Sequence record: PZ445530.1
Direction: 5' to 3' (one strand)
Length of the DNA stretch: 64,000 bases
From: a phage
This document shows positions 11,319-64,000 of the stretch, one piece after another (positions within the stretch are counted from its first letter, which is position 1; each line of letters starts with the position of its first letter). Made by a program: the position numbers and the translations under genes. The notes under the pieces were generated by a model. That model saw nothing but the letters and a program-made list of their open reading frames with translations, did not search any database and was not told the DNA's origin.

Positions 11319-11349
11319 ATACGCACAGACTAACAGAGAGCGATGTATT

Positions 11350-11541
11350 ATGGTAATTTTTAACCGGGATGGTATCATAGTTAGACAGCACCCCTTCCTT
11401 GAATACTATCAAATTGAGCAATGGTGCTACGGGGATTGCAGTCACTCCTATGGGCAAAGTTGGGGATATCGCACAGTTTTTGAATCAACAGACCTTGACA
11501 AAGTAAGACAGAAAGTTTTAGAACTTATTAACAACAAGTGA
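11350..11541 (+). CDS. hypothetical protein
   Basis: ORF downstream of consensus promoter. Confidence 0.45.
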   Translation: MVIFNRDGIIVRQHPFLEYYQIEQWCYGDCSHSYGQSWGYRTVFESTDLDKVRQKVLELINNK

Positions 11542-11550
11542 GTATGATAC

Positions 11551-11883
11551 ATGGTAACATTAGAAAGACGTAAAGCTATCGCCGCCACACTGGCAGACAT
11601 CTTTTGGGATTGCAACTTAAAAGATACCCGAAATTGTGGCGCATCTGTAGATGTATTATTCCCACGGCCCACCATTGTTGCAATGGGAAACCTGTTAAAC
11701 GTAGTGTACGGAGCATGGGACAAAGAAGGTGGATTCTATATCTGGCAACCTGACTACGGAGCCTGGAAAGAGGTAAGGGGTGCGGATGACTTTGGGCCTA
11801 CAGTTGCTAAGATGGATGGCTGGGAAATTTATGTTGGAAACGACATGAAGCTGAAAGGCGAGATTGTTTACTGGTTACCTTAA
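11551..11883 (+). CDS. hypothetical protein
   Basis: ORF. Confidence 0.5.
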   Translation: MVTLERRKAIAATLADIFWDCNLKDTRNCGASVDVLFPRPTIVAMGNLLNVVYGAWDKEGGFYIWQPDYGAWKEVRGADDFGPTVAKMDGWEIYVGNDMKLKGEIVYWLP

Positions 11884-12699: not shown

Positions 12700-13260
12700 G
12701 GATTTCTAAAATGGATTTCCTCCTTTTGATATTTCACCGGGCTGGATATTTTAAAATTCTTAGAAAATCAGAAAATGGATCGAAAACTAAAATGGATTTT
12801 TCAGAGTAGGCGCGACAAGCTGAATAACTCATCCTATCGTTTGCACCATATTCCAGGCCACCATTATAGATTTTCCACACATGCTAACCTCCCTCTACTA
12901 GAACTTCCTCCACTTGCCCTTAACCTTCTATGGTAACAATCTAACCACTATCTTGAAGTTGCGGTGCAGCTTTCCAAGTACTCGATCTGTTTTTCATTTC
13001 ATGGCTTGGATTTTCTGAAAATTTTTCTCGATAAATTTCTCAGTACTCGATCTGTTTTTCGTTTTCTGAATCGGATTTTCTGGAAATCGTTCCGGATCTC
13101 GACCTGAAATTTTTGGGGACGAAATCGATTTTTCGTTTTCAGAAATGGATTTTTAAAATTTCTATATGGGAATATTTTATGGGATACTGTTTTATAGGAA
13201 ATTGTTACGGAGGGTAATTAGCATGCTAATTAAATTTATTAAATGCGAGGAGTTCTCATT
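12700..13260. repeat. Iteron-rich non-coding region (candidate origin/regulatory region)
   Basis: Repeated aaatggat(t) and ggattttctg motifs; direct repeat cagtactcgatctgtttttc x2; perfect palindrome taattagcatgctaatta at 13219-13236; no plausible ORF. Confidence 0.5.
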
Positions 13261-13269
13261 TAGAATTTT

Positions 13270-13286
13270 GAATGATAATCATTCTC
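13270..13286. promoter_or_regulatory. Fur-box-like palindrome (copy 1)
   Basis: gaatgataatcattctc, 15 of 17 match to GATAATGATAATCATTATC core. Confidence 0.35.
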
Positions 13287-13403
13287 GTTTGCAGAATAAC
13301 GGGCAGGCCCGGTGATTGTCTCCCGGCCCCTGTTGCCCCGGCTTGTTATTATAGTATCACACAGGACAAAGAAAGCAAGGATTTTTTGCATAAATTTTTA
13401 AAT

Positions 13404-13422
13404 GATAATGATAACCGTTCTC
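13404..13422. promoter_or_regulatory. Fur-box-like motif (copy 2)
   Basis: gataatgataaccgttctc, 16 of 19 match to Fur consensus; followed by GC-rich element similar to that after copy 1. Confidence 0.3.
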
Positions 13423-13693
13423 ATTTTATGCAGCGCCCATCCCCGGTGGTTGTCTTCCCCGTCACCGGTGCCTGCCGTCCTTTCGATAGGTATATTGTGC
13501 CACCTGGCGGGGCCGCTGTCAACACTTTTCAAAAAATTTTTCTAACCTGATGCGCTAACCGCTGCAACCTGGCGGGGCCAGCCTGGCAGGACCTAACTGA
13601 CCAGGTAGGAGAGAATGAAGGCTTGTAAACCTGGTGGGCCTATGCTATAGGACAGGTAACAATTGAAGAGGAGGTACAAAAATAAAAGGTAAT

Positions 13694-13852
13694 ATGATCC
13701 CCCTGGAAAATGTAGCTATTAATGACGCTGAGGCTATCGCCCTGGTTGAAAAGGCCATGGCGGGAGCGTTGGAACATAAAGAAGAGTACGAAAAAATGAT
13801 GGTTAACCTGGCAGGGCGGCGGCAGGTGGATTCTATCATAAAAATAATTTAA
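13694..13852 (+). CDS. hypothetical small protein (52 aa)
   Basis: Short ORF below track cutoff; weak SD. Confidence 0.3.
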   Translation: MIPLENVAINDAEAIALVEKAMAGALEHKEEYEKMMVNLAGRRQVDSIIKII

Positions 13853-13940
13853 AATAATTGTTGACAACCGGGGGAGTCCTGCTATTCTTACCCTACAAGG
13901 TGAACAACACCGCACTAACTAGTAAAGAGGATAAAAAATC

Positions 13941-14138
13941 ATGAACGCATACGGAATCAAAGTACGTCGCAACACTCGCCAGGTGGTCACCGATCAAGTG
14001 GTTTGCCTGGTGGATGTAACCATCAACAACGGGCAAGGCCTTTATAAATTTCGTCGCGGTCATAGCTATACCCTGCAACAGCTTAATCGTTGCGCCCTGA
14101 CAAAAGGTCAGATCAATCACTGGTTTAATAAAAAATAA
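13941..14138 (+). CDS. hypothetical small protein
   Basis: SD aagagga; promoter-like ttgaca upstream. Confidence 0.5.
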   Translation: MNAYGIKVRRNTRQVVTDQVVCLVDVTINNGQGLYKFRRGHSYTLQQLNRCALTKGQINHWFNKK

Positions 14139-14142
14139 GTAT

Positions 14143-14170
14143 TGACATACGCCCCGACACAAAATATACT
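14143..14170 (+). promoter_or_regulatory. sigma70-type promoter
   Basis: ttgaca - 16 nt - tatact. Confidence 0.55.
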
Positions 14171-14202
14171 GAAATCACAAAAGACACTAAGAGGATAAAA
14201 TC

Positions 14203-20677: not shown

Positions 20678-20733
20678 ACCTGGCGGGGCCGAAAAGGCCC
20701 CCCAATTATGAAAATAAAGAGAGGCAAATCATC

Positions 20734-22504: not shown

Positions 22505-24935
22505 CTGCTCTTCTCCTACCATAAACGGCCCTACCTGGCAAGTGGAATAATTGACTAGCCATCAATCCCACATACTGTACAAATATACATGGAAAATAAC
22601 TATTGCATAATTTTTCATTGTGTGGTAGCAAGTCCATTTTTACCCGTTTTCTCTCCCAAAAGTGCACGTAATGCCGCTATTGCACAAATTTTAACCTGAT
22701 GCACATCTCCAATATCTTGTCAACAACTAAAAATCTTTATAAGTCATACACTTACACAGCATCGAAAGCGTGTTCTACGCGAAAAATCGAGTATAACTAT
22801 AGCCGCCAGATCTCAGAATTCACGTACGCACGCCATTCTATAGCCTGCAAAGTATTTATTCCAACCACAGAATAACGGAATAGTCAATACCTGCATAAAA
22901 TAATTATTCGTGCAAACTGCATAACATAAATCAGCTCAGGTGTCAACATTTTTCGTAAACAGTCCGAAATTATAACGATGAGTTATCATAAACAGAGAAA
23001 TCTTTAGTCGTCTAATGTTTACTGTACATTACTATACTGACTGGAATCATTAGATGACTAAGAGAAAGATAAGAAATAATTAATAATGTAATTATTTTAC
23101 CTGTAACAATAAGGCAACTATGCAAACGAATGGCATGGCGCGACGGAGTCGCGACATAATATAAAAGCAGTAACCATCACCCCCGTGATAGTTTGTCTGC
23201 AAACTATTAATCAGATCATAGTTGCCTTGTATTTAGTTAATCATGACATAACAAGCAAGGCAACTATAGATCTGCTAATAGTTGCCCTGCTTTTATATTA
23301 TGTCATGCTAATTATAATCAGTGCGATTATTGTCATGTATAATTATTGTCATGCAAACGAATGGCATGGCTGATTATCGGTGTGTAAACAGTCAATCATG
23401 TAAATGGTTAGCATGTGAACAATCAGGAATGTAAACAATCCAGTGTGTAAACTAATAGGTGTGTAAAAGTGTCATGTTGTGTCAGTTAGGTCACATTATG
23501 TCAGACAAGTTTTTCTCCTCTTTGTCAAGTGCTGCATGAAAAATTTACAAACTGGTATGGTAGCATTTTTGCGGCCCTGTTTACATTCAGTAATGTATGT
23601 ATAATCCTTGTTGTGTGGGCGTTTAGACGTCTAGACGGTTGGAAGTCCACAGGTCAATATCTAATCTATCGGCTGCTAACTATATCCCACACAAATAGCA
23701 AGAAATATGATTGTTATATGCGTAAACTGTAACTCATGTTATCAATCCCTGTATGGATCGCCAGTGGTGCGCATAATGGGTATTATGTTAAATTGCCCGT
23801 AATGATAACTATTCTCACAATGATAGGTATTCTCATTCATCCACATAAAATAGGTTGCAAATGTTGTGCCACTGTGTGAACGGCCTGGCCTATTAATTTG
23901 CCTCACTGCCTTGATATTTGAGAATTGTTATAAGAATGAGAAGTATTCCCATTTCGTCCGCCTGGCAGCACTCCTGTAGGTCAGGTCAAAATCGTGGTAG
24001 AATTGGGCCTGTTCAGATATTTCTGGCTGACTCTTCAGGTCTGTGTGGGAAAAGCCAACCTCTCCGGCGGGGCAGGGGGTCATGACGGGAAAATTGCAGG
24101 TCAATTAAAAATTTACGTGGTGTATGAAGCGCTCTTCAGGTAAGGCATGTATTATGGGATGAAACCCGCTTCAGGCAATGATATTTGTGGGTGTGATATT
24201 TGCTGGAAAGCCAGATATGACGGGACTCCCGGCGGGGATGGGGTAGTACAGACAGGGAAAATATGAGAATGTAGTTGGGGAAATTGATCAGACAGGTAGA
24301 GTATGGAATATGTTACAAGTATGTTAAATATGGAGGTTGAATATCTGTAGGATTTGTGTGTAAAATCAAAGACTTAAGGGGTGTTGTGGTATTTTCTATA
24401 AATAATTCAAGTTTAATAGGCAATATTTGTCTCTATCCGTTTTGTGTGGTAAACAGATTCAGATTAGATTGGTTTACAAGTGTATACATAATATACAAAT
24501 TAAAGATACAAGAAACCCCCCTCCCCCCTTCGGCTACCATTCACCTTTTCCTCTGACTGGTACTTAAACACTTATTCAGACTCTTCAGGTTATCACCCAT
24601 ATATCATATGGCAGTGACTGGTGTCCTCCGGCCCCTCTTTCGTCACCCGTCCGCTTCGCCATGCTAATGCCATAGCCAATGGTTCGGTTGTTCACCCTGT
24701 TCACTCAGGTGTATCTCCATACCCCTTCAAACCGAAGAGAACAGAAAACCCGAATTACTCGGTAAAAGAAAAGAGAAGAACTTAATTTTATCAGGATAGG
24801 CAAGAATGTCAAGGCATGACTGCTCACTAAACAAGCAAACAGTCATGTGTGGAAGGTAAGTGATTGTGGTGGTGGGAAATTTAGTTGAAAGATGTGTTAT
24901 AGGTGCTTCCAGCACTTTAGCCGGGCAGCTAATTG
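22505..24935. repeat. Repeat-rich non-coding region at the convergence of plus and minus transcription
   Basis: No convincing ORF; inverted repeats ggcaactat/atagttgcc; tgcaaacgaatggcatggc x2; tgtaaaca-type iterons 23380-23470; CTCTTCAGG x4; duplicated tccggcggggcagggg unit. Confidence 0.5.
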
Positions 24936-61305: not shown

Positions 61306-61380
61306 GCCCTGTTAGCTTAGTGGATAAAGCAGCGGCCTTCTAAGCCGTTGACACTGGTTCGAGTCCAGTACGGGGTGCCA
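61306..61380 (+). tRNA. tRNA-Arg (anticodon TCT)
   Basis: Cloverleaf by hand: acceptor gccctgt/acggggt, T-loop ttcgagt, anticodon loop cttctaa, encoded CCA. Confidence 0.6.
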
Positions 61381-61384
61381 AATT

Positions 61385-61471
61385 GGGGAGTTATCCCGTA
61401 GAGGTAGCGGTGTAGACTGTAAATCTATTGTCATTACGACTCGGGTGGTTCGACTCCACCACTTCCCACCA
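61385..61471 (+). tRNA. tRNA-Tyr (anticodon GTA), class II long variable arm
   Basis: Acceptor ggggagt/acttccc, anticodon loop ctgtaaa, long variable arm, T-loop ttcgact, CCA. Confidence 0.55.
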
Positions 61472-61585
61472 AATTTATAGTTTTAAATGCATAAATCATA
61501 CAGATAATGGCATTGATATTTATCGTCGTTTATACTAGTCACTAACTGCTCGAAAATCAGTGTCATTATCAGTATTGTTTATAAA

Positions 61586-61676
61586 TGAGGGTAGGGAGCA
61601 ATGGTGCTCAAGCGGTCTTGAAAACCGTCCCGTTGAGGATGACTCGATGATGGTTCGATTCCATTACCCTCAGCCA
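61586..61676 (+). tRNA. tRNA-Ser (anticodon TGA), class II
   Basis: Acceptor tgagggt/accctca, anticodon loop cttgaaa, long variable arm, T-loop ttcgatt, CCA. Confidence 0.5.
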
Positions 61677-61774
61677 TATTGTTGACCTTGTAATTAAGCG
61701 AAAGCCGGAAGCAGAACCGGATTATCAAATGTTACAGTCGTCATCGCCGACTAGCAACATGGTCAACATACTGA

Positions 61775-61871
61775 GCTAGGTAAGCCCTTTGGCAAGGGCG
61801 AGGATTTTTAATCCTGAAAATAGACGAGGTAGTCGTTGAATACATAGGTGGTTCGATTCCATCACCTAGCA
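61775..61871 (+). ncRNA. Aberrant tRNA-like element (97 nt)
   Basis: Acceptor gctaggt/acctagc and T-arm ggtgg-ttcgatt-ccatc are canonical, but anticodon arm folds as aggat-tttta-atcct (5-nt loop) with about 30-nt extra arm. Confidence 0.3.
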
Positions 61872-61879
61872 CCTTTTTT

Positions 61880-61955
61880 GCTGATGTAGCACAATTGGTA
61901 GTGCAATTGATTTGTAATCAATAGGTTGCAGGTTCAAGTCCTGCCATCAGCACCA
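61880..61955 (+). tRNA. tRNA-Thr (anticodon TGT)
   Basis: Acceptor gctgatg/catcagc, anticodon stem attga/tcaat with loop tttgtaa, T-loop ttcaagt, CCA. Confidence 0.6.
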
Positions 61956-61956
61956 T

Positions 61957-62031
61957 GGCCCTGTAGCTGGAAGGTTCAAGCAAGCGACTCATAATCGCCA
62001 GACGGTGGTTCAATTCCACCCAGGGCCACCA
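61957..62031 (+). tRNA. tRNA-Met or Ile2 (anticodon CAT)
   Basis: Acceptor ggccctg/cagggcc, anticodon loop ctcataa, T-loop ttcaatt, CCA. Confidence 0.6.
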
Positions 62032-62043
62032 AATAATAAATAC

Positions 62044-62119
62044 TCCGCGTAGCTCAGCTTGGTAGAGCGCCTGATTTGGGATCAGGAGGTCGAGTGTTCG
62101 AATCACTCCGTGGAGACCA
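62044..62119 (+). tRNA. tRNA-Pro (anticodon TGG)
   Basis: Acceptor ctccgcg/cgtggag, anticodon stem cctga/tcagg with loop tttggga, T-loop ttcgaat, CCA. Confidence 0.6.
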
Positions 62120-63223: not shown

Positions 63224-63648
63224 TGTCTAAGATTTACGGACCGTGTTCTGAAAAGCAGAAGATGATCCTCGAAAACGATGCAGATATTTTGGTAATCGGC
63301 GGTGCCGCAGGGTCTGGCAAGTCGTTCCTCTTGCAATTGATGCCACTTAAAATTATTGATGACCCCCACAGCTCTGTGGTTATGTTCCGAAGAACAACCC
63401 CGCAGTTGGAAGGTGAGGGTGGACTATGGCCTAAAGCGGTAGCTATTTATAGTGATCTGCCTGAAAACATTAAGCCAAAGTTCAGAGAGAAGGATCATAA
63501 GTTCATTTTTCCACGGTTTGATCCGAACACTGGCAAGTGGGATAGAAGCAAAAAGGGAGCTGTTGTAAAATACTGCCACATGGAGTATGTACAAGATAAG
63601 CTTAACCATCAAGGGCTTGAGTACACCATGGTTTGCTTCGATGAGGGT
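63223..63648 (+). CDS. Terminase large subunit, exon 1 (ATPase N-terminus)
   Basis: Walker A VIGGAAGSGKS; Walker B MVCFDEG at exon end; stop codon lies inside group I intron. Confidence 0.7.
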
Positions 63649-64000
63649 TAATTTGTAGCTCTCGTAAAACCTCCCTAATTGCGGGGAAATCTTTACTATT
63701 AATACCACCAACCTGTCATGGTAACATGATAGAGGCTTCGAAGAGAGATCGAAGGTATGGTAACAGTGTGTTAATTTAGATAATCCGCAGCGAAGCATCC
63801 GAGAGGATGAACGTTCAACGACTAGTCGAAAGACGTAGAATCAAGCGATTCGAAACGGGAGGATAAGCGGTTGTTGTCGCTTATAAGATATAGTCTGGTC
63901 TGCATGGAGACATGCAGCTGCCTGAAAATGGCGGGGCAAGACTAGCGACCTTGCCCGAACATAAACGACACAATTCGAATGGGAGCAGATAGACTATCTG
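63649..64000 (+). mobile_element. Group I intron interrupting terminase large subunit (3' end beyond window)
   Basis: P aattgcggggaaa 63677-63689, Q taatccgcagcgaag 63781-63795 (identical 15-mer to pol intron), R gttcaacgacta 63813-63824, S aagatatagtc 63885-63895; no long ORF inside. Confidence 0.65.

Follow-up and report, generated by a model that had tools for sequence, protein, structure and literature searches.

Candidate Fur operators in a conserved non-coding region of rV5-like phages

Analysis of a 64-kb stretch of phage DNA (hereafter the window, meaning the whole of that stretch) revealed two palindromes that we put forward, at a little under an even chance, as operators for the host regulator Fur within a conserved non-coding control module of rV5-like phages. 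The window is that of a Vequintavirus, an rV5-like virulent (lytic) myophage of E. coli, and through these predicted sites the phage probably reads or perturbs the iron status of its host. The proposal starts from sequence matches and their statistics, conservation across genera, the positions of promoters and the absence of coding capacity, all of which were observed directly.

The palindromes lie in a gene-poor gap of approximately 800 bp (12937-13693) inside a long rightward unit in which a DnaB-like helicase and a family A DNA polymerase come first, followed by many small ORFs. A megablast search with positions 12900-14200 matched 122 phage records, 113 of which were covered over at least 80% at 90-99% identity. 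A host origin of the sequence was rejected, positions 13250-13350 yielding no blastn match in 5,426 E. coli genomes. The ORF at 13272-13550, 279 nt long, is recorded as a hypothetical protein in the reference phage rV5 (ORF198) and in most other records. Comparison of the relatives indicates that it is not coding, because its frame is broken by in-frame stops in close relatives (L003 and L008) as well as in most outgroup sequences, as the earlier note had suspected; furthermore, an A/T run at 13530-13542 differs in length among Vequintavirus by numbers that are not multiples of three. The annotation of rV5 ORF198 and of its copies in more than 100 genomes is thereby corrected from a gene to a regulatory element. 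The features to which we refer below are as follows.

12964-13160, no strand: three AT-rich direct repeats of ~65-74 bp with a GTACTCGATC-type core (repeat families D1 and D2), directly left of the Fur-like boxes
13268-13286, no strand: Fur-like box 1, TTGAATGATAATCATTCTC, matching the Fur consensus GATAATGATAATCATTATC at 15/19 positions
13268-13297, plus strand: predicted weak rightward sigma-70 promoter, TTGAAT (13268-13273), 18-nt spacer, CAGAAT (13292-13297)
13272-13550, plus strand: spurious ORF, the rV5 ORF198 'hypothetical protein', with in-frame stops and frame-shifting indels in relatives
13301-13341, no strand: first copy of the conserved GC-rich element, its core, GGTGATTGTCTC, lying at 13311-13322
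13348-13378, minus strand: predicted leftward promoter 1, TTGCTT (13378-13373), 19-nt spacer, TATAAT (13353-13348)
13404-13422, no strand: Fur-like box 2, GATAATGATAACCGTTCTC, matching the same consensus at 16/19 positions
13433-13480, no strand: second copy of the conserved GC-rich element, its core, GGTGGTTGTCTT, lying at 13445-13456 (family D11; profile E 5e-6)
13494-13522, minus strand: predicted strong leftward promoter 2, TTGACA (13522-13517), 17-nt spacer, CACAAT (13499-13494)
13567-13579, plus strand: exact copy 2 of the motif ACCTGGCGGGGCC, inside TGCAACCTGGCGGGGCCAGCCTGGCAGG (family D10)
20678-20700, plus strand: copy 3 of the same motif, the 5' arm of a hairpin GGGGCC-GAAAA-GGCCCC directly after a stop codon

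A few observations were made on neighbouring and more distant genes of the window. The next small gene of the relatives begins at ATGAAAGGTAAT, where the window has ATAAAAGGTAAT (13683-13696); the start codon of the relatives being lost, the next ATG, at 13694, must therefore serve. The small gene at 11346-11557 (rV5 ORF205) shows 83-84% DNA identity to a gene of the T4-like Krischvirus phages (RB49, JSE) and thus points to gene exchange between unrelated coliphage families. Further away, a cluster of seven tRNA genes (61306-62119) includes a 99-nt tRNA-like gene (61775-61873) for which a four-base anticodon was called, and a group I intron (63639-63917; 84 bits) is found near this cluster.

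Box 2 is the best match to the Fur consensus in the 64-kb window and box 1 the joint second-best, the two being spaced by 136 nt (repeat family D5). That palindromes at 13270 and 13404 resembled the Fur consensus had been proposed in the earlier note; both matches were confirmed, at 15/17 for the 17-mer 13270-13286 and 16/19 for 13404-13422, and the resemblance proved to be well beyond chance, second-order Markov shuffles giving a mean of 0.42 sites per 64 kb with a score of at least 15/19 and of 0.05 with at least 16/19. Box 1 includes a perfect palindrome, GAATGAT-A-ATCATTC, at 13270-13284. When the upstream regions of Fur-regulated genes from E. coli K-12 were scored with the same metric, values of 14/19 (fhuA), 13/19 (fepA-fes), 16/19 (fepD-entS) and 15/19 (fepB-entC) were obtained; boxes 1 and 2 reach or exceed the scores of real E. 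coli Fur operators. On the 7-1-7 inverted-repeat core TGATAATnATTATCA, whose free central N was not counted, box 1 matches at 12/14 and box 2 at 11/14, and the boxes of the same family in relatives at 11-14/14. Box 1 has 16 consecutive bases, ATAATCATTCTCGTTT, in common with the Fur operator region of E. coli fhuA, and the ryhB operator is identical at 17/20 positions to the proximal box of the relatives (GAATGAGAATCATTCTCATT). Box 2 is nearly invariant, a single substitution being found in one of nine Vequintavirus sequences. No Fur homologue was detected by tblastn with E. coli Fur in any phage of the group, making host Fur the economical candidate binder.

A second large gene-free region, at 22900-24350, marks the junction of convergent rightward and leftward units and harbors four more Fur-like boxes (TGATAACTATTCTCA, TGATAGGTATTCTCA, GAGAATTGTTATAAGAATGAGAAGTATTC), the places of note within it being 23798-23835, 23919-23950, 23170-23300 and 23380-23470. 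It also carries GTGTGTAAAC repeats, together with GATAGTTTG / CAAACTATTAATCA repeats resembling those that replace the Fur boxes in four related contigs described below. The sub-segment compared (23740-24000) is kept only within Vequintavirus and is unannotated in most of the records listed.

The palindromes belong to a layout that extends across genera. Positions 13230-13387 (unit 1) were the only part of a 4-kb query that blastn still aligned with phages of other genera, at 71-87% identity; these include Phapecoctavirus, Mydovirus, Certrevirus and Seunavirus, and their hosts are Klebsiella, Salmonella, Cronobacter, Pectobacterium, Pantoea, Enterobacter and Proteus. Comparison of these loci with those of relatives from IMG/VR and metagenomes revealed a common order, from left to right, of an AT-rich array of iteron-like repeats, between one and five boxes resembling Fur sites, the conserved GC-rich element (core GGTGnTTGTCTC) and a leftward promoter, followed further right by a conserved element that we refer to as block 2 (outside Vequintavirus only) and a second leftward promoter with a GC-rich spacer. 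At least six genera have Fur-like boxes at the homologous position. Box spacing was taken from 34 distinct lineages, in most of which the proximal box starts 38 nt before GGTG (36 or 54 nt in four of them), and a TTG stands at the -35 position of 24/34 proximal boxes versus 1/33 distal boxes, the latter being phased ~29 nt apart, or roughly three helical turns. Such spacing and such a bias toward the proximal box would be the pattern expected of a Fur-occluded promoter with cooperative upstream sites. Within Vequintavirus (nine phages), positions 13230-13590 are nearly invariant, and positions 13590-13660 are variable and partly deleted. In four sequences (L027, L031, L033 and L042), other repeats (GTGATAGTTTC, AACTATTAATCAC and similar) are found where the Fur boxes would be; the boxes therefore appear to be a swappable input, with an exchangeable operator set. 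A metagenome contig (L171) was dropped as a relative, being a bacterial metal-uptake promoter.

Other genera carry block 2, a conserved element of ~90 nt not found in the window, downstream of their Fur module; it was located at L004 2682-2772, L005 2644-2739, L006 2646-2741 and in some 25 other loci. It consists of ACCGGCGATCCACCTT, a hairpin and GTTAGCCCCGCCTTTTCGCCGTGGGGTGGCG. Two pairs of the hairpin covary (A-U to G-C), and the element shows an exchange of CCCC/GGGG for CCAA/TTGG; indels in block 2 have lengths other than multiples of three, and Rfam has no match to it. Block 2 is probably an undescribed structured RNA or DNA element. A degenerate version at 13548-13600 in the window found no support in a profile search, an RfaH ops-like element within block 2 was dropped by eye as its TAG is not conserved in the alignment, and a search for block 2 in bacterial genomes came to nothing, its pattern being too loose and each of the 120 loci a chance match.

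As had been pointed out previously, GC-rich segments that are related to each other follow the two boxes: CCCGGTGATTGTCTCCC (13308-13324) and CCCGGTGGTTGTCTTCC (13442-13458) are 88% identical and 134 nt apart. On the accompanying proposal of a tandemly duplicated unit of ~130 bp the results were divided: a profile built from other genera only matched both 13268-13356 (E 1.7e-20) and 13407-13461 (E 5e-6), units 1 and 2 align over their first ~70 nt only, and Tandem Repeats Finder called no array at the duplicated unit. Unit 1 is nearer to other genera than to unit 2. The window hence appears to hold two diverged copies of the module arising from an old duplication. The label of hairpin given to the GC-rich segments also required qualification, in that imperfect stem-loops do form but are no more stable than those of shuffled sequences, with z-scores of -0.9 (minus strand) and -0.2 (plus strand) for copy 1 and -1.7 and -1.1, respectively, for copy 2. 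Among the folds of this element only the Certrevirus version stands out (z -3.5, minus strand), and the helix registers vary between clades. What is conserved in the GC-rich elements is their primary sequence (GGTGnTTGTCTC) and not any unusual hairpin stability. Reading of the alignment by eye gave a mixed picture of the strand that might be transcribed, three substitutions favoring a minus-strand RNA and two a plus-strand RNA: the G-to-A substitutions seen in L186, the L019 group and L020 would be tolerable only in a leftward RNA, and wobbles in L005 and L004 favor a rightward one. RNAalifold was dropped as a means of choosing between strands, the energies being equal on both strands of block 2.

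No Rfam family was detected at the gathering threshold in the region, whether in the window or in seven related loci, and permissive searches (E limit of 5 for the window and 1 for the related loci) returned only a match to the Lst thermometer among the iterons (13069-13158), with a score well short of the gathering cut-off. Neither of the predicted RNAs ends at a canonical intrinsic terminator, the only call being a 5-bp stem at 13437-13449. Similarity to ryhB is confined to the box. The one candidate for similarity beyond the box, a 12-mer, TTGTCTCGCGAT, common to the Seunavirus core (L006 2547-2558) and to the promoter/start of E. coli ryhB (-6 to +6), was set aside as not significant; the Seunavirus core also has a GCGA...UCGC stem in common with RyhB stem-loop 1, the overall similarity again not being statistically significant. 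Searching the window for trans-targets of the core motif returned 9 matches where 9.4 were expected. A T7-type primase site, TTGTC, was considered in the core and dropped because it is not conserved, the Klebsiella clade having TTGTA. The segment directly preceding the core (window 13305-13310 versus L012, L174 and L178; L009 versus L013) occurs as two alleles, GCAGGyCCGG and GCACCCCyGG, that recur within several genera, the second being able to fold as the mini-hairpin CACC-CCC-GGUG ahead of a U-rich run. The alleles point either to recombination between phages that infect one cell together or to alternative structures.

The scan of the region for promoter-like hexamers found 9, with 7.2 expected. 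The rightward promoter overlapping box 1 scores 7.5, which is not above the 95th percentile of shuffles (8); the A at -11 is absent from its -10 element in several clades (CGGAAT, CTGAAT), and the promoter is present in about half of the 20 sequences scanned. At box 2, neither an adjacent TTG nor a -10-like element was seen and hence no rightward promoter was predicted. Leftward promoter 1 aims into GC-rich element 1 and box 1, and leftward promoter 2, with a TG preceding its -10 element, matches the consensus at 10/12 positions and scores 10. A leftward promoter follows the GC-rich element at the same position in 18/20 sequences scanned, its -10 element ending 25-37 nt past the core, and the hexamers themselves differ between lineages (TTGCAA-17-TATATT, TTGACC-17-GATAAT, TTGATC-16-TATTAT). 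The predicted promoters face each other in positions that are kept across relatives. The strongest and most conserved predicted promoters of the region run leftward, antisense to the rightward direction assumed at the outset.

The motif ACCTGGCGGGGCC, listed in the earlier note as recurring near 13500, 13566, 13632, 13808 and 20681, is exact at three of these places (13502, 13567 and 20678) and degenerate at the other two, with three mismatches at 13632, in a segment deleted in some relatives, and two at 13806, inside a small coding ORF. Three exact copies exceed the yield of any shuffle. Allowing up to two mismatches, 5 matches were found versus 0.61 expected, and none of 100 shuffles reached five. 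Copy 1 (13502-13514) forms the spacer of leftward promoter 2, a layout also seen in phage W70 (CCCTGGCGGGGCCGTTGTCAAG). Copy 2 lies 65 bp downstream in conserved non-coding DNA; across Vequintavirus its core is invariant and its flanks are well conserved to ~13590, and it is not matched by the block-2 profile. The copies do not have one common context, being found in a promoter spacer, in conserved non-coding DNA and in the arm of a post-gene hairpin.

Taken together, these features led us to propose a module made up of a Fur box over a weak rightward promoter, ~40 nt of GC-rich sequence (core GGTGnTTGTCTC) and a strong leftward promoter that would fire back through the GC-rich element toward the Fur box. 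In the presence of iron, Fur-Fe2+ would occupy the boxes and shut the rightward promoter, perhaps also blocking leftward read-through; upon iron scarcity, the rightward promoter would open and its transcription would collide, or its product pair, with the leftward transcript. The outcome would be an iron-dependent sense/antisense non-coding switch inside the early region. Of the two diverged tandem copies in the window, unit 2 retains its box and core together with a leftward promoter close to consensus and has lost the rightward promoter signals. We infer from sequence that Fur binds, that both transcripts are made and in which direction regulation runs, and our belief that host Fur operators gate the weak rightward promoter facing the strong leftward one, although the highest that we accord to any mechanism here, falls somewhat below the halfway mark. 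Besides the fit of the boxes to the Fur consensus and their conservation across genera, we count in favor of the switch the conservation in position of the leftward promoter despite the turnover of its sequence. We count against it the weakness of the rightward promoter, the lack of one at box 2, the absence of a terminator and the ordinary folds, as well as the mixed evidence from wobbles and the replacement of the boxes by other repeats in four contigs.

Several other readings were weighed. The three iteron-like repeats directly adjoin the boxes, and equivalent arrays with different cores (GGTCTCGATC, GTTCTCGATC, ACTTGAGAGG) are found at the same place in every related genus examined; the array at 12964-13160 is a candidate for the replication origin that the authors of the rV5 genome paper could not place (PMC3606486). 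It is bracketed by a 30-nt imperfect inverted repeat (12880-12909 / 13196-13225), each arm of which resembles a ribosome-binding site plus ATG pointing outward. The whole locus may then be part of an origin, the iterons serving as the initiator-binding and unwinding region, the leftward promoters, which are conserved and aimed at the iterons, supplying transcription that activates or primes, as it does at the origins of T7 and T4, and the Fur-like boxes and GC-rich core acting as accessory elements. Genes for a T7-type replisome (DnaB-like helicase, family A polymerase) lie on the same strand ~10 kb upstream, in keeping with such a reading, yet the GC-skew profile of the window is featureless at the locus and the precise fit of the boxes to the Fur consensus is left unexplained, and we regard it as unlikely, if the most credible of the alternatives. 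Slightly less likely in our estimation is that the boxes act as DNA only, phage DNA replicating to hundreds of copies soaking up Fur and derepressing the iron-uptake regulon of the host, which might, for instance, supply nucleotide synthesis that depends on iron. The Fur titration assay works in this way: one Fur box, carried on a multicopy plasmid, is enough to derepress reporters under Fur control. Here the two boxes and about four at 23798-23950 would count alike, their position relative to promoters being incidental; an excellent match at box 2 with no adjacent rightward promoter, the second cluster of Fur-like boxes in another non-coding region and the arrays of up to five boxes in relatives would all fit. 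The near-fixed 38 nt to GGTG and a promoter-type TTG almost exclusively in the proximal box suggest instead a role in cis, and a pure decoy has no need of positional conservation.

A phage-encoded DNA-binding protein whose site happens to resemble a Fur box would account for the other repeated palindromes that stand in place of the boxes in L027, L031, L033 and L042 and for the mixture of both kinds of repeats in L008-type phages, and most of the neighbouring genes have no assigned function. The consensus of the boxes, TGAGAATnATTCTCA, is nevertheless closest to the Fur-family 7-1-7 motif, with a base-for-base match to known E. coli operators, tblastn finds no Fur-family protein encoded by these phages, and the boxes persist in phages of six genera of Enterobacterales hosts. 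These hosts have the Fur box in common. Such a protein strikes us as improbable, a shade more so than the decoy. That the region holds nothing but ordinary intergenic promoters and terminators, with AT-rich palindromes that are Fur-like by chance, would be in keeping with the commonness of promoter-like hexamers in AT-rich DNA (9 versus 7.2 expected) and with the unexceptional hairpins; it is hard to reconcile with the two best matches of 64 kb lying only 136 bp apart, with the conservation of palindromic boxes across genera in the only alignable island, and with the phased multi-box arrays of relatives. Chance resemblance was already disfavoured and is, in our view, very improbable. Homology to the pseudo-ToxI escape locus of phiTE was also considered and dropped, pseudo-ToxI lying at 106.7 kb in phiTE (PMC3475682) and the homologous module at 39.6 kb. 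Some of the decoy, accessory origin and phage-encoded binder roles could coexist with the iron-responsive switch.

If the switch operates as proposed, the phage would adjust its early expression or its replication to how much iron the infected cell has, and a host metal sensor would be a core regulatory input of a strictly lytic phage. The fuller picture, to which we give a somewhat lower probability than to the switch, would have rV5-like phages and their relatives in two subfamilies wired into the host Fur regulon, a helically phased array of candidate operators gating a sense/antisense switch beside a probable origin and possibly titrating Fur. If host Fur gates the early switch, or is titrated by replicating phage DNA, the outcome of infection would become iron-dependent; rV5-like phages encounter iron-limited hosts in the gut. 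They are used in phage typing and in therapy trials against E. coli O157 (PMC3606486). The rV5 genome paper describes promoters, a non-coding box left without explanation and an origin left unmapped, and says nothing on the present element (PMC3606486). The adjacent iterons are now a candidate for that origin. In full-text literature searches Fur sites came up neither for rV5-like phages nor for other lytic ones; the single match concerned a Fur box upstream of sitABCD on lambdoid prophages (PMC6969025). Fur control of phage-borne genes is known for the cargo of temperate phages, and in the papers searched no report was found for the core control region of a virulent phage.

The arrangement has counterparts in known systems. 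As at the Fur-repressed promoters of E. coli (fhuA, ryhB, fepA-fes, entC), a 19-bp 7-1-7 Fur-like box lies over the -35/spacer of what is predicted to be a weak sigma-70 promoter, the fhuA and ryhB operators sharing 16 nt with box 1 and 17/20 positions with the proximal box of relatives, respectively, and the multi-box arrays of strongly regulated iron promoters recur in phage relatives. Unlike those promoters, the candidate phage site lies in a strictly lytic genome, controls no recognisable iron gene, has a weak -10 element and is faced by a strong antisense promoter ~50-75 bp away. In Fur-repressed small RNAs of the RyhB / PrrF type, too, the promoter of a short non-coding stretch carries a Fur box; the transcript of the phage locus is a predicted one, and the locus lacks an Rfam match, a canonical terminator and significant similarity to ryhB beyond the box. 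The stx1 promoter of Shiga-toxin prophages is Fur-controlled and, like the sitABCD box, is a phage-borne operator tying phage-carried functions to host iron status; both belong to temperate phages and to cargo or virulence genes, whereas the candidates described here sit in the core non-coding control region of a virulent phage and recur in two subfamilies. Parallels in layout are 186 pR/pL, lambda OOP and P22 sar, in which convergent promoters tens of bp apart yield overlapping short transcripts whose balance is set by a repressor. The face-to-face promoters, or cis-antisense RNA, of these switches respond to phage repressors and decide between lysis and lysogeny or govern immunity, whereas the predicted input to the rV5-like module is a metal sensor of the host.
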